Below, in pieces: positions 263-64,000 of a stretch of DNA of 64,000 nucleotides; within the stretch, counting starts at the first letter, position 1; each line of letters begins with the position of its first letter. A program made the translations under genes and the position numbers. Below the pieces are notes generated by a model. It did no database searches. It saw only the letters and a program-made list of their open reading frames with translations, and was not told the DNA's origin. This DNA comes from Octopus vulgaris (Eukaryota): positions 42,966,001-43,030,000 of the forward strand of contig OX597816.1 of NCBI GenBank assembly GCA_951406725.2. Reading direction: 5' to 3'.

Positions 263-961
263 AAAGTAGTGTTTTCCACAAAATCATTATCACTGGTCCA
301 TTACGCAAAATTGCTTGTACCTTTCCAAAGTTATCGTCTTAAAGTGAAAACTGAAGTTGCTAAGAAGACTGGGCAGAAGATGAAGATGTCTGCTTCTACT
401 CCTTTCAATCTTTCCCCGCGTACAATCTCTTTTCATGAAATCATCTGTCATAGGGAAGTTGACTGACATTCTTCATCAAAGGAAGACATCAAGTTGGTAA
501 TGACGTCCGACACAGCTGACAGCAGAAATCATATTATACTCGGTAGCAGCTGTCATACATTTTCACAAGAGAGCAATACTTGTTCATAAAACGAGTGCAG
601 AAAGGTATCATTATTATATATTTACGTACATCAGTGTTGCAGAGTATGAACGCGATACAAAGTTAAATATACGATATACGTATATGAAGAAACATTGGAA
701 GCATCGATTGTGTTCATATTTTACGGGCACGAAAATAAATTTTAAACGCAGTATAGCTGTGAATACAGCAGAGAAGAATTGGCAGCTTACCGTTATAAGA
801 CGGTAAAAGGAAAAAGTTTATAAGCATGGAGCTATGTGAATCGAACGTTGTGCTTCTCATCTACGAGAATCGAACGGTGTACGCCTCACTTAGTAAGTTG
901 TGTGCTCGACCAATAACCTAAACGGACCATTATAACACAGCATTGCCAATTTTAATACTAA

Positions 962-1099
<138 letters not shown>

Positions 1100-1689
1100 T
1101 AAGACGTAAACCCAGTGCCACCTGCTGAATGGTTGGGTCATCAGCGACTAAACTGGCAACCCTATCAACCTTGCTTCATGAGAACATTAACAGTTGGACA
1201 CCCAGCAGAACGAAAAATAACACCTGTAAAATAGCGGAAGAGCGCATGAGGAGTGAGCGGCTATCCAACAATATGTGTGCGTGAGGACGTGGAAATACCT
1301 GGGTTGGTAACCAGGGTCGCGGTGGGCCCACTGGGAATTTTGTCAGTGAACAGGTCGCGGTCTCAAAACGACGAAAATATTTTGGCAATTTAAATTTAAA
1401 TGTTGAAGTGAATCTAACGGTTTTTGTGTGTTTCTTAGATGCCTTATAAACACTTTCCACGCTGCAATTGTTTTCGTTCCAGCACACAATCTCAGTTCAG
1501 CTCAGCTCACTTGCTTTGCAAGCACATCTCCGTAATACATACATACATACATACATACATACATACATACATACATACATACATACATACATACATACAT
1601 ACGTACATACGTACATACATACATATATACATACATACATATATATGTATGTATGTATGTATGTATATGTATGTATGTATATGTATAAA

Positions 1690-2300
1690 AATACAAACTG
1701 GGACAAAAACGGAAAACATTTAGGAGACGATACCAAAACACGGACGGGACATTCGAAGTCTTCAATCTTCAGTCAAGAACCGGATCATCCTCGCAATTTC
1801 GGCTGATTAATCTTGAGATTGCTCCAATCTGGCCAGCCCCAAGGATAAACTATTAGATTCCTTGGAAAAAACTTCGAATATACACAAACCAAGGACGGAA
1901 AAACGGACGATGTTACACGAATATGAATACAAAAATGATATGTAAAAACAATAATAATAATACGTAGAAACAATAATAATAATAAAATAACAATAACAGG
2001 ACATCACAAACAGGTGTCTTTCGACTAGACGGATTAAACTCAGCTGGCGTGTTAGGAATGTGCCTTGGGGCAGAGAGAAAAAAATGTAGATGTTACCGCT
2101 ACGGCTGCTAGAACCCGAAAGGCCAGCAATCGGTCAGTCAGTCACGCGAGAAGGGCAGAGAGAGGAAAAGAGAGACAAAATAATTAATGAGGGGGAGTAG
2201 AGACAGAGAGCGAGAAAAAGAGACAGGGGCAAAGTGAAGTGCAAAGTAAGAAGGCGAAGAAAATTAGGAGAGCGGGGAGAGAGATAGAGTCGTTTGTATT
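1690..2300 (-). mobile_element. Non-coding Penelope-pLTR/retrozyme-like element related to the 56323-57459 element
   Basis: 1690-1880 aligns by eye with 56335-56570 (shared tcttcagtcaagaaccggatcatc and aatttcggctgattaatcttgagatt). It is followed by a GA-rich tract as in the 56 kb element and sits between microsatellites. Confidence 0.65.
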
Positions 2301-2303
2301 TTT

Positions 2304-5312: not shown

Positions 5313-5386
5313 TGGCCGGATAACTGAAGAGATGGCGGCGTGGATTTCCACCTCGGCATCCGAAACTCGGAGTTTTATCATGGCTA
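5313..5386 (+). ncRNA. Type I hammerhead ribozyme motif in a pLTR-like cassette
   Basis: Stem I GAUAA/UUAUC (extendable), core CUGAAGA 5324-5330, stem II GAUG..GUGGA/UCCAC..CAUC, GAAA 5362-5365, near-palindromic stem III ACUCGGAGU, cleavage triplet GUU 5372-5374. Confidence 0.85.
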
Positions 5387-30598: not shown

Positions 30599-32078
30599 GG
30601 ATGGATAGTACAGACAACTGACTCAACACTACAGTAAACTAACGTACACATGTATGGTCTCCCTAAGATTCCCAATGATGGTATTCCATTAAGACCTATA
30701 GTGAGCTCTAGAGGGTCAGCATGTCATCCACTGAAGTGCTTCCTTGTGGATATAATCAGTCCATTAGCAAGAAAGTCAACATTGTACATGAGGAATTCCA
30801 CCCACTTCGCAGAATTAATCAAGGATAACGCCATTGAACCCTACCCAATGGTGAGTCTAGATGTGATAAGACTGTTCACCAAAAGTCCTAACTGGTGAAC
30901 ACTATAGGTGATTCAAGAAAAAACTTGTGAAAGACACCTATCTAGGAGAACATACTAGTATACCAATAAGAAATTTGATGGAAATGTTGACTTTCTGTGT
31001 AGAAACTACCTGGACACTGATATATATCGACAAGAAGAGGGTTTAGCTATGGGTTCGCCATTATCACCGATAATAGCTAATATATACATGGAATATATTA
31101 GAGAATTTGACTTTATGATCAACACCACTAAAAACAACCCTATGGCTGCTATATGTTGCTGCAAACTTTATACTCTGGCGCCACCAAGAATATGGCCAAG
31201 TTCTGTTAGATCATGTGAACTCAATAGAGCCATCCATACAGTTCACAATGAAAAAGGAAAGAAAAGAAAAAGGCAATCAGCTAGCATTTCTGGACGTATC
31301 AGTAACAAGCACCAAGTATGGATTCAGAACATCCAGATATCGCAAGCCGACCTTAACTGGACGATACTTCAACTTCAATTCCCACCATCCATACAGTGTA
31401 AAAAGAGGGATTGCCCAGTACCTAAAACATCGAGCAAAGAATATAAGTAGCGAACGTGATACCTACCACTAAGAAATGATCAAGCTACGTAACAATCTAT
31501 TAAGCAACAACTAACCCCCAAACATACAATCCACTCCAATTATGAAGAAAAGAGAGGATGAAACCAATAAACTGTCCACAGTCTCTCTACCCTATGTGGA
31601 AGGTCTCTCCGAAAAGATACAAAAGATATGCGGTCCATATGACATCAGGACATTATTCAAGTGTAATACAACACCTTGCAATTATCTCCTTCCAGTAAAA
31701 CCACCAATAGAAGAGAATATGACCAAGAACTGCGAGTACTCCATACCAGGTTATACAATGGTGAAACATGCCGCCCCTAAAAATAAGGACAGATGAACAT
31801 CGCAAAGCTGTGACACGAGGAGATATTGATAAATCGGGTATTGCTGATTATGTATTGAAAATGGAGACTAACTCCACCTGTGAGATGAAGTTAAAATAGT
31901 AGACAGAGAACACCACTGGAAAATACGAAACGTAAAAGAAGCAGCACATACGCTAGGGCACAACAACCTCCTAAGCAGTACGAGTGCAGATATGAATAGC
32001 ATATGGGAACCCGTTTTAAGGAAGGATAGGAGAAAATTATATTTATAAGCCCTCGTATTCAATCCATAATTGCCCATA

Positions 32079-32131
32079 GGCATAAGGCGTAGTGGTTAAG
32101 AGTGCCGGCTATTAAACCCAAGTTTCCGAGT
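32079..32131 (+). other. tRNA-like 5' segment in the 3' UTR/pLTR of the Penelope element
   Basis: ggcgtagtggttaagagtgccggct is an A-box/D-arm-like sequence that breaks off at ..ccgagt. A B-box-like ggtttgaaatttccc lies at 32194-32208. Confidence 0.55.
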
Positions 32132-32211
32132 AATAATATAATAATAATGATAACAGCAGGAACATCGAAAAATACCTTAGTAATGAGAACCCAGGTTTGA
32201 AATTTCCCTAA

Positions 32212-32257
32212 GACACCTGATGAACGCTGAAGGGTACAGCAACCGAAATGATGCGTT
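32212..32257 (+). ncRNA. Decayed type I hammerhead in the Penelope pLTR
   Basis: GACAC CUGAUGA ..GCUG/CAGC.. GAAA UGAU GCGUU. The core is intact, while stems I and III carry substitutions. Confidence 0.7.
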
Positions 32258-32574
32258 AACAACAAAAATGAGGACAAATATCAGCCAAATGTAAATCATG
32301 TACATAATTCCTCATCTCTTAAATATAGAAGTGTATTATATAGATGGAGAGATCTTTTATCTCATTGACTATTCACCAATAGTCATCATTCATTTACCTA
32401 TTGTTACACCCCTCCAAAGCGTTCGCTTATTAATATATTTTTGTAATTTTTATATAACTATCTGATTTCTCATTCAAATTCAAAGATTTCGCTTGCATCG
32501 CTTCCCTCTCATAACTTACAAATATAAGCATATATATTTCCGCACATGCGCGTTGTTACATATAAGAATATTCT

Positions 32575-33085: not shown

Positions 33086-33677
33086 TAAGAGCATATTAAA
33101 AAAAATAAAAAAACAAGTTTCGAAATTTAAAATTGATGGTATCAACTGTAGTAACATAGGTAGTTCGCAGGCGAAATGCATTATTTAACTATAAATTACA
33201 AATTAGCACGAAGCGTAGACAACCTAGTGACGTCTTATTTCAAATCTTAGTGTTTGAAAGTTTAGTTTATAAATATTTCTGCACCATGTGCTGTGTTTTT
33301 AGAGCAAAATAAAACCAGTACTCTAACGGAATATAACGTGACGGTCTTTTAATACTAGGTGGTCAACGCTGAAGAAGCTCAAGGATTAAATTTTCAAAAG
33401 CCGAAACCTGGGTATGTGGGTGTCCTAAATTGCATAATCTTTCCTAGTTGAGATTTTGAATGTATTAATTCTTTCTATTTCCTCGCCTACTGTTATTTCT
33501 CTGTTATCATGGTGTCTTTGTGCTTTACGGTGATTTAATTAAGACTTTAGCTCTTATTTCTAGCAGTTTGATTCTTATTCTGCCTCCTGACACTTCGTAC
33601 TAATTTGTAATTTATATATGCATACATACATACAAGCATACATACATATATATGTGTGAGTGTGTGTGTGTGTGTGT

Positions 33678-52704: not shown

Positions 52705-52868
52705 ATGCAAAAATGGGACAAGAACGCAAAGCATCCAGACAGATACGTGATACAAAAAAAGGACAACAAAACATCAAGACAGAAAATACAATGAAAACAA
52801 GGACGGGTCACGCGGAGTTTTTTTCCTCAGTCGAGTTCCAGATTACCTTTGCAATTTCTGCTGGTTAT
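52705..52868 (-). mobile_element. Fragment of the non-coding pLTR/retrozyme-like family
   Basis: gggacaagaacg..ggacggg..ctcagtcgag..gcaatttc.gctg parallels 1700-1805 and 56349-56455. Confidence 0.6.
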
Positions 52869-52869
52869 A

Positions 52870-53145
52870 AACATAATTTATGTCATAAAATGGTCGGGCT
52901 GCCACCAAGACTACGTGGGTTCCACGGGACTTTCACTCAGACGTAGATGCACACTGCATCGACAACAGATTGCATTCCCAGAATATAGAATGATACCTTT
53001 TAGTGAGCACATTGAGAAATGCGCAAAGCAACTACTACCACAATTTTAATCTTTCCATTTTACCAATGTGCTTTCGGATCATCAACACAAATTAGACTAA
53101 ACAAGGAAACATTCTTCATTGAAAAGTACAAGCCCAGACTCAACC
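52870..53145 (+). mobile_element. Penelope-like GIY-YIG endonuclease fragment (one frameshift)
   Basis: NIIYVIKWSGCHQDYVGSTGLSLRRRCTLHRQQI..PFSEHIEKC, then IFPFYQC..IRLNKETFFIEKYKPRLN (GIY, YIG, R, H, E and N residues). Confidence 0.9.
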
Positions 53146-53310
53146 ATCCGAACATACTGATACAGAGAAATTCACACCAAGGGTGAGGAAAACATTTTTA
53201 AGCGATTATCTCCCTTACACCGGAATAAATCACTCACTACCTCCCCTTATTTAGAACTCTCCTGAAAATAAACACAACGATAACTCTATTCAACATAAAC
53301 ATAACGTCAC

Positions 53311-53349
53311 AAGAAATTTGAAAAGCTACACGCGAAACCGGTCTTTCTT
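53311..53349 (+). ncRNA. Minimal type I hammerhead with a U3:A8 core, downstream of the GIY-YIG fragment
   Basis: AAGAAA u UUGAAAA GC uacac GC GAAA CCGG UC UUUCUU. Stem I 6 bp, palindromic stem III ACCGGU, triplet GUC. Confidence 0.75.
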
Positions 53350-53482
53350 TTAAATTATGTCATTATAACAGAAAAAAATTTTTTAAAAAAGTTTTCTAAT
53401 ATTCTTCAGACATAATGACGCAAATATATATATATATATTTTAACATTTAAGCCTTCTGTCGTTTTTTCACTCTTTACTACT

Positions 53483-55564: not shown

Positions 55565-56322
55565 CATACATATATGTCTATGAATAGACACTTAGACATA
55601 TATATGTGTGTGAGCCGTTCTTTCTCTTCTTCTGCATCTGCATAAATATTTACACGCACAAGCACGTGCACACGCACACACACACACACACACACACCTA
55701 TATTATTTATGTTTCCTTCTTTTGGTTTTTCATTTTCTTTCCATTCATTTACATATTTGTGAGGAAAGTGAATTGGCCGAATAAATATGGTGTGAATACT
55801 TCGGCTCATATATCTTCTTGTCTTTGCATAGACGGTCCTGATTCCGGATAGTAGCGTAAAGTGACGAACCTGACGCTCGGACGATGTAGCTTACAGAGCG
55901 GAAATTAAATAGCAAGCTCGTAGTTCGGTAATTTAGCACCAAATCAAGCTGTCAAAATGCCTAACGGCTATTTGGTTTAGAGGATTGTGTTCGAATTCAT
56001 TGCTGTGTATGTCATCTTATTTCCTATTGGTCTTATTTATATGACTAATGCAAAACTCGATCATTTATGCGACTATATGTTTGAGTGAATGCAATTTTTG
56101 TAAAAGTCTGCTTGTTTAATTATAGCTATCTACAAGAATTTTGTTAGGTTTTTGTTTCGATTTTATTTATTTATTTATTTTGGCACAAAATGGAATATGT
56201 ATGTGCAACAGATAGACAAAAAGATACAGACGTGCATATATATACATGTGTGTGTGTGTATATATATATGTATGTGCGTGTATGTGCGCCTGTGTATGTA
56301 TATATATATATATATATATATA

Positions 56323-57459
56323 TTAAGGTATGTAGAAAAATACAACATGGACAAGAACGTATAACTCTTAGAAGACGATACAATAAACACGGACAGGAAA
56401 TTCGAAACCCTCAGTCTTCAGTCAAGAACCGGATCATCGTAGTAATTTCGGCTGATTAATCTTGAGATTACGAGATCACGGCCAGCCCTCCAAGAAAAAC
56501 TAAGCAACGAGCATTAGAAAAACTAAGCTGGAAGCGTAGATTTCCTGGAAGAAGGATCGAATGCATACGAACACCAGGACAGCAAAAGGGACAGATATAA
56601 AAAAACAAAAAACAATAATGGAATACAGAAACATGAAATACAGAAGCATTAACGGTGAAAACAACAGTGTCTTACGACTGATAACAAGCAAACAAATTTT
56701 TTCTCTGGCGCAATGGAAAAAGCCTTTATAGCGGCGGACGAAAACAGCGATGTTAACACGACGAGGGTCAGAAGCTGAAAGGCAGATTTCGGCCAACAGT
56801 CACGTGACAGAGAAGAGGGAAAAGAAAAGAAAGAGAAGCAAAGGAAGAGAGAGAGAGAGAGAGAGAGAGAGGAGGGACAAACGCAACAAAGAGAGAGAAG
56901 AGAGAGAAAGAAGGAATCAGAGAGGAGAAGGGATGGGTGTCGAAGAATGACCTGTGAGTGCAGAGCGAGACAAAGAAATAGGAGGGTAGTGGAAGACTAG
57001 ACCAAAGAATCAGAGGAAAGAGAAGAGAAAAAGAGGATGAGTAGAGAGAAAAGAGAGAGAGGGGGACAGATCAAGTAAAAATGAGAGAGAGAGAGAGAGA
57101 CAAACAGAGAGTCGTACCAATTATTAAGAATATGTGCTCACATTAATGTTAAGGGGGGTACGGGGCGCCTGGAATATATGTTAAGGTATGTAGAAAAATA
57201 CAACATGGACAAGAACGTATAACTCTTAGAAGACGATACAATAAACACGGACAGGACATTCGAAACCCTCAGTCTTCAGTCAAGAACCGGATCATCGTAG
57301 TAATTTCGGCTGATTAATCTTGAGATTACGAGATCACGGCCAGCCCTCCAAGAAAAACTAAGCAACGAGCATTAGAAAAACTAAGCTGGAAGCGTAGATT
57401 TCCTGGAAGAAGGATCGAATGCATACGAACACCAGGACAGCAAAAGGGACAGATATAAA
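56323..57459 (-). mobile_element. Non-coding element with 279-bp direct terminal repeats (858-bp period), retrozyme/pLTR-like
   Basis: 56323-56601 equals 57181-57459 with one mismatch. GA-rich interior, no meaningful ORF, flanked by (TA)n. Confidence 0.85.
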
Positions 57460-57473
57460 CACACACATATATA

Positions 57474-57504
<31 letters not shown>

Positions 57505-57760
57505 CGTATATTTGAACATTTAATGTGGTTTTAGGCTATTTTCAGCGTGGTGGTATCTCCTAGATACTCTAAATTATGATTTTAAATAATTATTACCTGT
57601 TAAAGGTTTTTATCCGCATGCTGGCCACCCGATAAGGTTGGTATTTAAATATCGATCTTATCCTTATATATATATATATAGTTATATGCATGTATACGAG
57701 AGATATATGCATACATTTGTATATATGTTGATATGTATATGTATACGTATAAAATATACA

Positions 57761-57814
<54 letters not shown>

Positions 57815-58334
57815 AGCATATATATACACACACACATATATATATATATATATATGCATACAAACTTACGTACATATATACTATATATGCAGAGGTAGAC
57901 ATAAATAAGAGACAGGATGAGAAAGAATGTACGTTCCTAAGAGATATCACTCAGGAGGGGAAGACATTATCTGGAGATGTAGTATGCATAGAGAATTGTA
58001 GGTGTTTGGTGTCATATACTGGAGAATTGAAATATTATTTCAAACAACCTCAAATTTCCTTCGTCATTCTTACTGAGCCATAATACTTTTTCTACATATG
58101 TCTGCTTTCCGCTTTCCTAGTCTTTATGTATGTTCGTAGCGTTCCTCTAACGTTTTATTTTTTTGCTTAGACATGCCGGCTATATCTTATTTTTTCTTTC
58201 TACTTTTGTATTCCCATTGGACTCCTTAGAAGAAGCATTATACAGCTATCGTTTCATGATTCGTCGAAAACAATATTGAGGATTATGACGGTTGGATGTA
58301 AACGGTGCAGAACTTCTGTCTTGGAAGTAAATTA

Positions 58335-58711
58335 GGCGCAGGAGTGGCTGTGTGGTAAGTAGCTTGCTTACCAACCACATGGTTCCGGGTTCAGTCCAAC
58401 TGCATGCCATCTTGGGAAAGTGTCTTCTACTATAGCCTCGGGCCGACCAAACCCTTGTGAGTGGATTTGGAAGACGGAAACTGAAAGAAGCCCATCGTAT
58501 ATATGTATATATATATGTGTGTGTCTGTGTTTGTCCCTCTAGCATTGCTTGACAACCGATGCTGGTGTGTTTATGTCCCCGTAACTTAGCGGTTCGGCAA
58601 AAGAGACCGATAGAATAAGTACTAGGCTTACAAAGAATAAGTCCCGGGGTCGATTTGCTCGACTAAAGGCGGTACTTCAGCATGGCCGCAGTCAATTGAC
58701 TGAAACAAGTA
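58335..58711 (+). mobile_element. SINE family A
   Basis: Near-consensus copy with a short microsatellite. Confidence 0.92.
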
Positions 58712-59019
58712 CGTAAGTAATGACGAATATATTATTATAATGCCGCACAAATATGATTAAAACAGCACGATATACATATACAAATGTAAAGTTATCTGTC
58801 GGGCTTATAAGATACTTGGCCTAAACGTCACAAATTTTCATTGGCACAAATACAGCTTTGTTTTCATTGGCGGAAGCAAGCTCATTTTCCAATCACGTAG
58901 TTTAGGTTTCAGACATTTTGAATAGCATCTTGTTGAAGTGTATTCTAAAACAGTCCAAGACTGATTAAGTGAATTCCGTTATCGGAAAATCTATAGAAGC
59001 CTATCGTAAATATATACAT

Positions 59020-59404
59020 ACTCTTTTACTTGTTTCAGTCATTTGACTGCGGCCATGCTGGAGCACCGCCTCTAGTCGATCAAATCGACCCCGGGACTTA
59101 TTCTTTGTAAACCCAGTACTTATTCTACCGGTCTCTTTTGCCGAACCGCTAAGTGACGGGGACGTAAACACACAAGCATCGGTTGTCAAGCAATGCTAGG
59201 GGGACAAACACAGACACACAAACACACACACACACACATATATATATATACATATATACGACAGGCTTCTACCAAATCCACTCACAAGGCATTGGTCAGC
59301 CCGGGGCTATAGCAGAAGACACTTGCCCAAGATGCCACGCAGTGGGACTGAACCCGCAACCATGTGGTTGGTTAGCAAGCTACTTACCACACAGCCACTC
59401 ATGC

Positions 59405-59408
<4 letters not shown>
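59020..59408 (-). mobile_element. SINE family A
   Basis: Reverse-complement copy with a small internal deletion. Confidence 0.92.
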
Positions 59409-59466
<58 letters not shown>

Positions 59467-59532
59467 GTGTGTGCGTGTTTAATGTGCGTATGTATATATA
59501 TTCGTACATATTTATATATGTATACACATATC

Positions 59533-59566
<34 letters not shown>

Positions 59567-59571
<5 letters not shown>

Positions 59572-60612
59572 GTTTGGGGTAACGACGCTAAAGAGCGCAG
59601 AGTGAATCCTCTTGGCACAGATTGACCTTATACACTGTTGTGCGTGCGCACTAAATTTTAACACTCTACCTCACTTCCGTTGTTTACAGCAGTGCCAGGG
59701 AGGAAGGTGTGTAGCGTGTGATCGTTGCATTTACCACGTGAGACCAATTTATCATGTCGGTACCTGCCCAGAGGCCAACAAAAACATGCAGAAATTTTAT
59801 GGAAAGTAGCGTATAAGCCGCACATAAATGTACGAGAGGTTCAGACATTTCCAAGATGGCCGCAAAAATGTTGACATTGAAGAAAGTGTGTAGCGTGTGA
59901 TCGTCGCATTGACCATGGCAGAGAAAGTTGACCAGAGAATCTCCATCCAATTTTGTCAAAAGCTTGGTGATACTTGCTCGGAAGCCTACGCAAAGTTTTA
60001 AAAAGGACTTCATCGTTCTCGACATAATCAAGATCTTGTGCAACTGACATCCGAATGTCCTTTTGGCCAGCTGGAAGCAGTTTTGTCTCAAAGTTGGCAG
60101 ACACACGCCTCATCCCTAAATCTTCAGTGATAATTGACTGAACTGAACCGTAACTAACATTCACATTCACTGATAACGCACAGATGGTGATTCGACGAGC
60201 CCCCCCACAGCTGCACGCAGATCTGCGATGTTTCTCTATGTTCGGCAGGTTGCGGGTCTCCCAGAACGTTCGTCAATAGCCACCTTTTTTCGGCGATCTT
60301 GGAAACGTCTGAACCACTTGTAACAGTTGTGCGAGACTCATACACTCCTCTCCATACACTTTCTGCAACTTTGTGTCGGCCTCTGAGCAGGTATCACCAT
60401 GAAAACTTTCTCTGTCGTGGTCAGATCGAGGATCATACGCAAGGCACCTTCCTCCCAAGCAGTGCTGGAAACATCGAAAGTGAGCTAGAGCGTTAAAACC
60501 TAGAGCACCCACACAACAGAGTTTAAGGTCAATCTGTGCCAAGCGCCTTTACTTTGTGTACTTTAGCTTCGCTACTATAGAAACAGTCCCGATACTTATT
60601 GATCGGACCGCA
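59567..60612. mobile_element. mariner-derived fold-back element built from two inverted 5' ends
   Basis: 59567-59880 (+) mirrors about 60280-60612 (-), both containing cttggcacagattgacctta. N-terminal transposase remnants: MAEKVDQRISIQFCQKLGDTCSEAYAK, LQKVYGEECMS, VSYGSVQSIITEDLGMRRVSANF..KLL. Confidence 0.85.
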
Positions 60613-60639
60613 TATATATACATGCATACAAACATACGT

Positions 60640-60766
<127 letters not shown>

Positions 60767-60829
60767 GAGACAGAAATAAATAGATGGACAGATATATAGA
60801 TAAATAGGTATGTATGCGTCCATATATAC

Positions 60830-60898
<69 letters not shown>

Positions 60899-60929
60899 TA
60901 CTTATATATGCATACACACTTATATATAT

Positions 60930-60977
<48 letters not shown>

Positions 60978-61479
60978 TTATATAAATGCATATATGTGTA
61001 CATATATAAGGGTGTGTCTACTTTTATTTTGAGCGTGTAGCTGATGACTACAGTATTGACTCAGCTACCCACCACCAACTCCACCACAATATCCAATAGT
61101 AACCACCTTCTCACAAACACATTAGGGCCAAAAATCAATAGATTTCATCTGAGGTTATTGCATGACGATGTCCCATGTGATCATATTAACGACACAGCTA
61201 TGTAGGTGAAATTATATTTATTGATTATAATAATATAATGCGGAAGGCATCCGTAACAAATTTGATCACACTAATGGCCGGATTCAGTGGGGTTTTGTCT
61301 CTCGTAATAATAATATCATAATAATAATAACGTAATTAATTGCCATTGATCCGACTCGCCACGAGATCATTGTGTAACGTTGATGTCAAAAAGCAAACAC
61401 AACGCCATTTGTGGCATCGGTATATTTTGCTTGCTTCCGGATTCTGGAAATTTTTCGTTTATTGAAAAGTCATGCCAAG

Positions 61480-61760
61480 TGTTTTGGGTGTGTGTACGCT
61501 CATTCGTAACGTTTATTTTCTTGAGATCTCGAAATCTGCTTTCACTACTTCATGCAATGTCTTCGGTCATTTTCTTCCACGGGATATTTTCACTTTTACC
61601 GTTTCGCACATCTATATACTCTCAGGTTCCACGCATATCAGATATTATGGTATACGTCCTCTACTCTATAGCAAGAAGTAATAGATTTCTCTTCTCCTGA
61701 ACCTTTTTGCTACCACAAATATCACATCAGAGAACAGGAAATGTTGTCTTTCTCCAGAGC
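61480..61760 (-). mobile_element. Possible highly decayed RTE-clade LINE 3' end
   Basis: The minus strand gives VQEKR.. and RGRK*PKTLHEVVKADF, resembling the RTE C-terminal GRPKKTW.EVV..DL. Confidence 0.45.
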
Positions 61761-62221
61761 CCTTCAATTATAAAACATATTTCTGTTAGAATTTCACCGT
61801 ATTTTACTTATTCCATAATAATTCATGATTAATATATATAAAGTATAAAGACAGATTTTCTAAAGAAACAGCATACAGATGATCAATAAACAGTCTTAAA
61901 AGCTTTTCCTGTAAGAAAAGATTTTTCAAAGCATTCGTCACGAATTATAAATCGAAATTATTAGAGATAATATGCTAATATAATTACATGCAGGAATTAG
62001 CAACCAAATAATTCACCAGAAAGCTATTTCTACATATTCGGCACCCGGGCAGCATTGGTTGACTAGTTTAGGTTCATATATTACTACATACACACAACCA
62101 AACACATACGCTATATTACATGTGTATAAGTTGATAGGTATACATATAAACATATATATATATATATGCGCGCGCACACACACAGACACACACATATTCT
62201 ATTACTATTTACTATTTACTA

Positions 62222-62642
62222 TTTTACTTGTTTCAGTCATTTGACTGTGGCCATGCTGGAGCACCGCCTTTAGTCGAACAAATCGACCCCAGGACTTATT
62301 CTTTGTAAGCCTAGTACTTATTCTATCGGTCGCTTTTGCCGAACCACTAAGTTACGGTGACGTAAACACACCAGCATCGGTTGTCAAGCGATGTTCGGGA
62401 GGACAAACACAGACACACAAACATATACACACACATACACATATATACATATATACGACGGGCTTCTTTCAGTTTCCGTCTACCAAATCCACTCACAAGG
62501 CCTTGGTCGACCCGAGGCTATAGTAGAAGTCACTTGCCCAAGGAGGATCCATGTGGTTCGTAAACAAGATCCATGTGGTTCGTGAACCTGGATCCATGTG
62601 GTTCGTAAACAAGCTACTTACCACACAGCCACTCCGACGCCT
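62222..62642 (-). mobile_element. SINE family A with an internal triplication
   Basis: Reverse copy in which gatccatgtggttcgt occurs three times in 62546-62606. Confidence 0.9.
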
Positions 62643-62666
62643 ATATATATATATATATATATATAC

Positions 62667-64000
62667 CTGCTTTCCTGTCTTTCCTCACCTGCCTTCTAAG
62701 GCCACTGGTCGACATCTTCCTCTCTCGTCGTCCACTATAATCCAGCGTTTGCAATACTTTTTTCGTCTGGCCTTAACAGCCCTTCTTATCTTGTTCTCCT
62801 TGTCCTGTCTCTCACTGTTATATATTTATTTTTCCACTGTTTATATATATATTTTTTACTGTTTATATGTTTGTACTGTCGTTACCGTCTTGCCTTTTTT
62901 TACCCCTCCGCGACAAGATCTCAGAATTTTAATTGATTTGCTTGTCTCGGGAAGGAATTTTTCATTCGAAGTATACGTCTCGCTTTTATCCTTCGAAACG
63001 TTTAGTAGATGAAACTTTAGCGACTGAAGAAGGGGATTTTTCGTTGTGCTTATTGTCCTGTATCTCCTTTTTTTGCTTGTCTTGTTCCTTGGTTGTGTCT
63101 ATGTTTTTCGTCTCTCTATGTGTTCGACGTCCTTTTGGTGTCCTGTACACATATATGCGTGTATATGTACATGTAGAGGTAGGTACGTACATACATGTTT
63201 ATATATATGCATATATTTTATTAACATATTATACGACTAAACGCACGCACCCTATTAAGTAAGATTGTTCTGTTTATCAAGTTCGCCTTGATATTAACTC
63301 TCACGCGACTCTGCCTCTTTCTTTCTTTCTCTCCCATTCCCTTTTTCGTCCTTTTTCCCTCACTTAACTTGTCTCTTCCTCTCTCTCTCCCCCTCACTGT
63401 TCTTCATGGTCTCCTCGCACCATTCCCCTTCTTCTCTCTCTTCCTCTTGCTCCTCCTCCCCCATTCCCGTCGTCCATCTGCGACGTACTTCCGTCGTAAC
63501 TGCTTTCCTGTCTTTCCTCACCTGCCTTCTAAGGCCACTGGTCGACATCTTCCTCTCTCGTCGTCCACTATAATCCAGCGTTTGCAATACTTTTTTCGTC
63601 TGGCCTTAACAGCCCTTCTTATCTTGTTCTCCTTGTCCTGTCTCTCACTGTTATATATTTATTTTTCCACTGTTTATATATATATTTTTTACTGTTTATA
63701 TGTTTGTACTGTCGTTACCATCTTGCCTTTTTTTACCCCTCCGCGACAAGATCTCAGAATTTTAATTGATTTGCTTGTCTCGGGAAGGAATTTTTCATTC
63801 GAAGTATACGTCTCGCTTTTATCCTTCGAAACGTTTAGTAGATGAAACTTTAGCGACTGAAGAAGGGGATTTTTCGTTGTGCTTATTGTCCTGTATCTCC
63901 TTTTTTTGCTTGTCTTGTTCCTTGGTTGTGTCTATGTTTTTCGTCTCTCTATGTGTTCGACGTCCTTTTGGTGTCCTGTACACATATATGCGTGTATATG
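62667..64000 (+). mobile_element. Non-coding partial-tandem element (833-bp period, at least 501-bp direct repeat), retrozyme/pLTR-like
   Basis: 62667-63167 equals 63500-64000 with one visible mismatch. CT-rich interior. Begins directly after (TA)n and runs off the window end. Confidence 0.85.

Follow-up and report, generated by a model that had tools for sequence, protein, structure and literature searches.

In the portions of the literature available to us, hammerhead ribozymes with a non-circular order of their core blocks had been reported from environmental sequence only, and type CSG from just two metagenome sequences. The accessible sections of Eckert et al. (2023, PMC10085705) report type SGC only in metatranscriptomes and assume that block C is uninterruptible. 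The other background is provided by mobile elements. As far as the excerpts of Craig et al. (2021, PMC8557442) go, the Naiads, a clade of Penelope-like elements, are without canonical hammerheads and had only "HHR_core/half_core" strings flagged in them ("HHR_half_core" in the octopus Naiad, for which a preference for (TA)n is given). The same excerpts describe 5'-truncated partial tandems of Naiads, a (TA)n preference of cephalopod Naiads in general, and cephalopod Naiads as long-inactive remnants. In the available part of the preprint by Li et al. (2026, 10.64898/2026.07.22.740005), the search was limited to type I hammerheads. The wiring discussed below is not described in the accessible parts of PMC13282606, PMC6765202, PMC7229834, PMC3088659, and PMC6155905, and a literature search, with most subscription papers outside its reach, returned no report of permuted hammerheads in Naiads or in animal genomes.

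Here we analyse a repeat of an 833-nt unit at the end of a 64,000-nt stretch of octopus DNA (the window). Taken as a whole, the repeat is reasonably likely to be a partial tandem, recent and 5'-truncated, of a non-coding element that exists in many copies and is likely mobilised by a Naiad; each unit carries a predicted self-cleaving hammerhead of new wiring. The repeat, its (TA)n junction, the family of copies, and a perfect core surrounded by five helices with complementary strands are direct observations.

The 833-nt repeat and its family of copies

The repeat has the following parts.

62642..62665 (no strand): (TA)12, the microsatellite target, flanking the insertion on its 5'-truncated side, read from the sequence
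62667..63499 (+): full 833-nt unit, non-coding
63500..64000 (+): second unit, ended by the window edge, matching the first at 500 of 501 bases
63222..63229 (+): TA-rich stretch where the family likely has a fixed 3' end, from a depth drop and loose ends in public runs (weak)

The sequence at 62667-63167 recurs at 63500-64000, over 501 bp and with a period of 833, and the two copies differ by a single mismatch (62887 G, 63720 A), so that 1.60 units fit before the window ends at 64000. The first unit begins one base past the (TA)12, an insertion into a microsatellite of the kind that marks Penelope-like elements. The two-block motif GAAA...CUGAAGA occurs once per unit, at 62995-63030 and 63828-63863, on a strand (+) that is 69% pyrimidine; the corresponding figure for the unit of a second element, near 56 kb of the window, is 71%. 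No blastn match at E<=0.05 was found between the 833-nt monomer and the 858-nt monomer of this 56-kb element. An earlier note on this DNA had claimed a monomer of 833 nt in at least 1.6 copies, a repeat of at least 501 bp with one mismatch that starts at (TA)n, one motif per unit, a pyrimidine-rich motif strand as in the 56-kb element, and a sequence that does not align to that element; all of these observations hold.

With the unit joined head to tail, the longest open reading frame from an ATG measures 55 aa on the (+) strand and 68 aa on the (-) strand, and the frame of an autonomous Naiad (N-terminal GIY-YIG, CxC, C-terminal RT) is absent. Because no frame from an ATG exceeds 68 aa, the unit can be a dependent element at most. 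Folded as a whole, the unit has a z of -4.67 (20 shuffles), due largely to a TA-rich hairpin. A TA/CA-rich near-palindrome lies at 63151-63216, just before the likely 3' end, and could aid priming on (TA)n targets. SINE copies, which we take to be of octopus type, are abundant in the window, as are microsatellites; the SINE beside the element, at 62216-62641 (-), contains a short internal triplication at 62545-62612.

The unit is not a one-off but a multi-copy family. More than half of its sampled words are present in 20 of the 24 public runs listed, from eight studies; among the listed runs that contain these words, none is on record as RNA. The comparison of runs used contigs only, and contig depth does not equal copy number. 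In four runs, 3247, 340, 47, and 39 contigs match 62667-63499, most of them less than 99% alike, and many in the run with 3247 contigs are 82-95% alike. Head-to-tail joints of the unit occur in three of the four runs. Depth along the unit is uneven, with a sharp drop after 63226 in all four, and loose ends lead into TA-rich letters behind 63229 (run X5, one contig) and behind 63222 (run X2, two contigs). This pattern fits a fixed 3' end of the family near 63225 combined with variable 5' truncation. If the 3' end is fixed at 63222..63229, the present insertion should therefore end near 64055-64062, just past the window. The partial tandem and its 5' junction are seen directly; the likely 3' end, beyond the window, is placed from the runs. 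The insertion looks young, whereas the cephalopod Naiads have been described as old remnants.

A predicted hammerhead with a split core

A descriptor that permits all six orders of the core blocks revealed a GUC site upstream of GAAA, and with it the arrangement below. All features lie on the (+) strand.

62903..63035 (+): predicted split-core permuted hammerhead, copy 1, from descriptor, folding, and pair count
62903-62907/63031-63035 (+): P0, copy 1, 5 of 5 pairs
62909-62917/62941-62949 (+): hairpin P4, copy 1, 8 of 9 pairs
62951-62956/62989-62994 (+): stem II, copy 1, 6 of 6 pairs
62975-62978/62998-63001 (+): stem III, copy 1, 4 of 4 pairs
62980-62984/63019-63023 (+): stem I, copy 1, 5 of 5 pairs
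62977..62979 (+): GUC triplet, predicted cut 3' of 62979, by analogy
62995-62998 (+): GAAA core block, copy 1
63024-63030 (+): CUGAAGA core block, copy 1
63736..63868 (+): predicted ribozyme, copy 2, with identical helices and a predicted cut 3' of 63812

The core of the hammerhead class is complete, with CUGANGA present as CUGAAGA, GAAA unchanged, and the N-U-H triplet as GUC. Stems I, II, and III flank it with 5, 6, and 4 Watson-Crick pairs, which include A15.1-U16.1 and G10.1-C11.1, provided that stem II is formed with an upstream strand: the strand that precedes GAAA (62989-62994) pairs fully, from G10.1-C11.1 onward, with 62951-62956, which lies upstream of the cut site. Within the unit the cleavage site is followed by GAAA and then by CUGAAGA, which is the non-circular order S-G-C. 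The GUA triplet between GAAA and CUGAAGA that had been envisaged for this locus was thus wrong both in its letters and in its place. The wider proposal of a permuted hammerhead survives in part, since the core order is permuted and the geometry is that of the 56-kb family; the permutation is not circular but non-circular and pseudoknotted, with the cut site upstream.

From 5' to 3', the strands follow one another as P0a, hairpin P4, the stem II strand (10.x), the cleavage block (16.x-GUC-1.x), the GAAA block (11.x-GAAA-15.x), the second stem I strand with CUGAAGA, and P0b. The strand after CUGANGA pairs with a strand still further upstream, forming P0, and the P4 hairpin fills the gap between this strand and stem II. 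Topologically, this amounts to the ring of types SGC and CSG broken open at A9/G10.1, where P0 and P4 span the gap. We found no tested precedent for a core opened at this point.

Unconstrained folding of the motif recovers P0, P4, and stem III. When folding is restricted to nested pairs, the upstream stem II and stem I reach a probability of about 1%, and the z of the region is -0.04. P0 of this family is not significant singly (the best helix returned by the script is another one, p 0.09). Variation in the public runs bears on the same region: none of the six listed variant places in 62951-63030 falls within the 41 core or stem positions (chance 0.013). The window has C-G as the closing pair of P4, 62909/62949, where 98-100% of the run depth has U-A, and a change of C to A at 62914, present in about 80% of the depth in three of the four runs, would break one P4 pair. 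Rfam gave no match at the gathering score in the 64-kb window, and no ribozyme family among 99 weak matches in 55800-64000.

It is highly probable that a conserved, hammerhead-derived fold in S-G-C order is present. That stem II of the 833-nt family uses the upstream strand is likely, and self-cleavage, judged by analogy, is predicted with the same degree of assurance.

The same predicted fold in other families and in Naiads

Outside the 833-nt element, the full fold occurs within the 64 kb only in the 56-kb family (two motifs) and in one relative of it.

56316..57465 (-): 1.3 units of the second family (858-nt unit), in which the fold occurs twice, with the triplet AUC and cores at 56487-56415 and 57345-57273, from sequence, descriptor, and folding
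1680..2302 (-): element related to the 56-kb family but diverged and truncated, flanked by microsatellites; its motif at 1838-1766 folds alike, and stem III shows a compensatory change

These insertions end in microsatellites after about 1.3 and 0.7 units. The 56-kb and 1.8-kb copies have 85% identity in the motif against 69% in the 300 nt upstream, and the change in stem III is the one compensatory change. The window contains five S-G-C motifs, all in the 833-nt and 56-kb families (the 1.8-kb relative included), and all five have a 6-bp upstream stem II that starts with G10.1-C11.1. The four-block descriptor found nothing in 200 block-wise dinucleotide shuffles of the window, and a plain SGC descriptor found 0.025 matches per shuffled window (40 shuffles). 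Unconstrained folding of the 56-kb motif returns P0, P4, and the upstream stem II (z -2.68). A decayed element at 52705-52985 (-), which ends in (TA)n, is 73% identical to the 1.8-kb motif over 75 nt; its GAAA and CUGAGGA blocks are present and the cleavage block is absent. Head to head with it, a stretch at about 53000-53480 (+) resembles, by eye, the end of a GIY-YIG Penelope element.

A pattern scan of about a third of a metagenome collection yielded 120 loci, of which 28 fit the four-block descriptor. The metagenome support comes mostly from one family in two samples: 27 of the 28 loci belong to a single family with two sub-types, mostly in two samples. The remaining one, L212, is a fourth, unrelated family, with the split-core fold at 536-660 (+) of a 1.1-kb AT-rich contig. 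Rfam gave no matches in three metagenome loci. As a control, none of 141 viral loci with the core pattern fits the four-block fold, and the same code found type II hammerheads in six viral loci (L018, L021, L049, L098, L138, and L140, all well formed and in phage contigs). One weak viral match in SGC order, L120, looks like chance in coding DNA.

Since stem II is part of the descriptor, its fair test is a set chosen without it. Forty motifs (five from the window, 35 from the metagenome) were therefore picked by their stems I and III alone. In 31 of them (5/5 in the window, 26/35 in the metagenome), stem II has an upstream partner that gives at least 5 bp, and the nine metagenome motifs that lack it are all point-mutated copies of the large family. 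A contiguous downstream stem II of at least 4 bp is found in two of the 40, namely the two copies of the 833-nt element (4 bp, two of them G-U). A direct joint of 0-2 nt between A9 and stem II, expected of the hammerhead class, is missing from the predicted fold; the 833-nt family has a weaker downstream option. For the four unrelated sequence families, the shuffle p of the upstream stem II is about 0.01, 0.06, 0.02, and 0.08. In an alignment of 18 metagenome copies (L156 and 17 of the 28 loci that fit, which are related and so count as two events, not sixteen), the five helices are paired in 94.9% of 720 cells, against 25-54% in slid controls, with two-sided changes in P0 and stem I. P0 of at least 5 bp occurs in 27 of the 29 motifs tested and is often not significant singly. 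The unrelated families could not be aligned with MAFFT, and cross-family pairing was tabulated by descriptor, in which the stem II rows are paired by construction. Between families the stem letters differ, and the core letters and a valid N-U-H triplet are kept.

A link to Naiads appeared at the metagenome locus L156, where the split-core motif lies about 300 nt behind the end of an open reading frame, an RT end of Naiad type. A full-length relative of this frame, P0031 (65% identity), encodes a 953-aa protein with an N-terminal GIY-YIG and a C-terminal RT, which is the Naiad layout; the Pfam match to GIY-YIG, at E 7e-4, is below the cut-off. A recognisable RT end of this kind was seen in one of the screened metagenome loci, most of which are short or truncated, and no viral relative of the L156 peptide was found. 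In the 64-kb window, a pattern search found no Naiad-like peptide motif.

File S5 of PMC8557442 contains 54 Naiad consensi; for 53 of them we then read the last ~420 nt by eye, with no program. In these parts of the consensi, the same four-block fold is visible in 10 of 53 (Bfor, 3_Chem, Amil, Aacu, Anas, 2_Movir, Plae, EuTe, Obim, and Ovul), which by eye represent seven independent families with different stem letters. P0 and P4 are clear in Bfor, 3_Chem, Amil, 2_Movir, and EuTe; among the weak points are a stem I of only 2 bp in Bfor and two mismatches in Aacu. By the same reading, six nematode Naiads (1-, 2-, and 3_Nbra, Hcon, Hpol, and Asuum) have a clean type CSG near the 3' end, three others (Ptep, Smim, and Esco) have the S-G-C order with an unclear stem II, and the other 34 of the 53 have neither fold within the last ~420 nt. 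Many bivalve and hemichordate and some cnidarian Naiads have, by eye, other conserved structured motifs in the hammerhead's place.

These last motifs look twister-like, which would suggest swapping of ribozymes within the Naiad clade. In sequence features, the 833-nt unit shares only the fold with the Naiads, and no autonomous partner for it was found. The window also holds remains of other Penelope-like elements. A broken element of canonical Penelope type at 30630-32320 (+), with an RVT_1 match of E 8e-4, contains a decayed type I hammerhead at 32217-32249. At 5320-5378 (+) a type I hammerhead with a GUU site, and at 33369-33407 (+) a type-I-like core, are each followed by a pyrimidine tail that runs into a microsatellite; both are short Penelope 3' ends.

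Explanations and comparison with known systems

That the 833-nt element is a mobile, non-autonomous element of Penelope type is very probable. An alternative to this view would be a satellite array or a local segmental duplication unrelated to retrotransposition, for which one may cite the head-to-tail joints in three of the four runs and the window ending inside the second unit, which leaves the true length beyond view. We consider this very unlikely, as the repeat starts sharply at (TA)12, the run depth is uneven and drops after 63226 with TA-rich loose ends, and the two similarly built insertions of the window stop in microsatellites after little more, or less, than one unit. The nature of the helper is less clear-cut. 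A Naiad is probable; a canonical Penelope-like element (Neptune, Poseidon, or Hydra), with the element and fold as described, is unlikely. For the latter, one can point to the (TA)n targeting seen in the Hydra clade too, to the decayed canonical element at 30.6-32.3 kb of the window, and to the excerpts of PMC8557442, in which the cephalopod Naiads are called remnants. Against it, the Neptune, Poseidon, and Hydra clades carry type I hammerheads, and in the metagenome loci and Naiad consensi screened, the fold stood behind Naiad ORFs only.

As to the ribozyme itself, one reading is a hammerhead of type II, circularly permuted, with GUA or GUU as the site enclosed by GAAA and CUGAAGA. This would explain the order of these two blocks, and a flanking stem II can be drawn for it. 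It is extremely improbable: none of the six candidate U-H sites between the blocks allows a stem I of more than 1 bp, and no Rfam hammerhead match was obtained, although the same descriptor found true phage type II motifs at once. A more serious competitor is a plain type-SGC hammerhead active in the 833-nt family, with stem II formed by the strand right after CUGAAGA, a helix joining stems I and II, and the upstream strand as an alternative or regulatory one. The 5-bp stem I, a 3-nt linker to stem II, and a 7-bp helix at 63008-63014/63039-63045 match the published description of this type, and no run variant is listed in 63031-63037. An intact block C with a stem I-II helix can be drawn in the 833-nt family and is absent in the other three families compared. 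Against this reading, the downstream pairing 63031-63037/62988-62994 does not start cleanly with G10.1-C11.1. It can be drawn with 4 bp, or with 6 bp that include two G-U pairs and tolerate an A-C mismatch at the core, and its duplex energy is -5.5 kcal/mol versus -7.3 kcal/mol upstream. None of the 35 metagenome motifs has such a pairing, its register does not fit in the 56-kb family, and in the folded model the strand after CUGAAGA forms P0. We therefore hold plain SGC to be improbable. Slightly less probable again is a conserved fold that does not cut by itself, being a slow or protein-dependent ribozyme or a hammerhead-derived signal for RT binding or priming. Multi-pseudoknot folds may misfold, the insertion reads through two intact sites, and the available part of PMC4209133 reports that minimal Penelope hammerheads cut poorly in vitro. 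On the other side, unrelated families whose stem letters differ retain all letters of the catalytic core together with a valid N-U-H triplet, and SGC and CSG forms cut in vitro according to the accessible sections of PMC10085705.

Returning to a Naiad-dependent element with a self-cleaving split-core hammerhead, the following cycle can be proposed. A transcript across a tandem locus would be cut after 62979 and 63812, which would free an 833-nt unit, and the RNA downstream of the cut would retain the catalytic strands. In the freed unit, P0 and stems II and III would keep the 3' end close to the 5' part of the same molecule and so promote circularisation by ligation; for type I retrozymes, the available part of PMC7229834 shows such ligation. 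A circular intermediate of the 833-nt element is plausible, with the balance tipped slightly against it. The Naiad RT/GIY-YIG protein might then nick (TA)n, prime there, and begin the copy close to the likely fixed 3' end, which lies ~195 nt past the core; a Poseidon element starts inside the RNA in vitro (PMC11167929, in the part available). The copy would extend beyond one full turn of the template and break off at 62667. Because the insertion spans two intact cut sites, the template must have been a circle or an uncut multimer, or copying must have jumped. The earlier note had supposed a replication mechanism shared by the 833-nt and 56-kb families; with the same motif geometry in an unrelated family, this is still the best reading, without the circular permutation that was ascribed to the shared motif.

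A bolder reading, on which we are evenly divided, is that the opening at A9/G10.1, re-closed by two helices into a multi-pseudoknot five-helix junction, may be a seventh natural hammerhead wiring beyond the six block orders considered possible. It would be active, would be the missing ribozyme of many Naiads in hosts ranging from ctenophores to cephalopods (those of nematodes having type CSG), and would drive abundant Naiad satellites with circular RNAs of 0.8-0.9 kb, the 833-nt element among them. The more conservative view, that the split-core hammerhead is a variant within a known ribozyme class, is well supported by good comparative evidence from sequences, its activity being predicted. 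Because current descriptors and Rfam miss the fold, counts of ribozymes in invertebrate genomes may be far too low.

Among known systems, as far as the accessible parts of the papers describe them, the pseudo-LTRs of canonical Penelope elements (Cervera and de la Pena 2014, PMC4209133) carry minimal type I hammerheads that need dimers, whereas the split-core fold has a full stem III within one unit; its opening at A9/G10.1 is the site of the conserved extra nucleotide in those hammerheads. The non-LTR retrozymes of animals (Cervera and de la Pena 2020, PMC7229834; preprint 10.64898/2026.07.22.740005) are likewise non-coding tandem units with one hammerhead each and tied to Penelope-like elements, but they carry type I hammerheads in units of ~170-400 bp, often in long multimers, whereas the 833-nt element has a knotted hammerhead and fewer than two units. 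The description of the locus as retrozyme-like is thus apt for a non-coding, multi-copy mobile unit with one motif each, and fails against the published definition (type I, ~300 bp): the element works like a retrozyme and is not a member as defined. With the Naiad clade, in the available part of PMC8557442, it shares 5'-truncated partial tandems, (TA)n targets, and the fold seen by eye in the ten consensi; it differs in having no ORF and a unit of 833 nt. With the SGC/CSG hammerheads, in the available part of PMC10085705, it shares all core nucleotides, a short linker leading from the cleavage block to the GAAA block, and pseudoknotted stems I-III in the same cyclic strand order; it differs in that the 5' strand of stem II lies upstream and is not joined to CUGANGA, in two added helices, and in its occurrence in an animal genome. 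The 833-nt element is thus best described as a Penelope-like element that is non-autonomous, likely depends on a Naiad, and carries a predicted split-core hammerhead of non-circular permutation.
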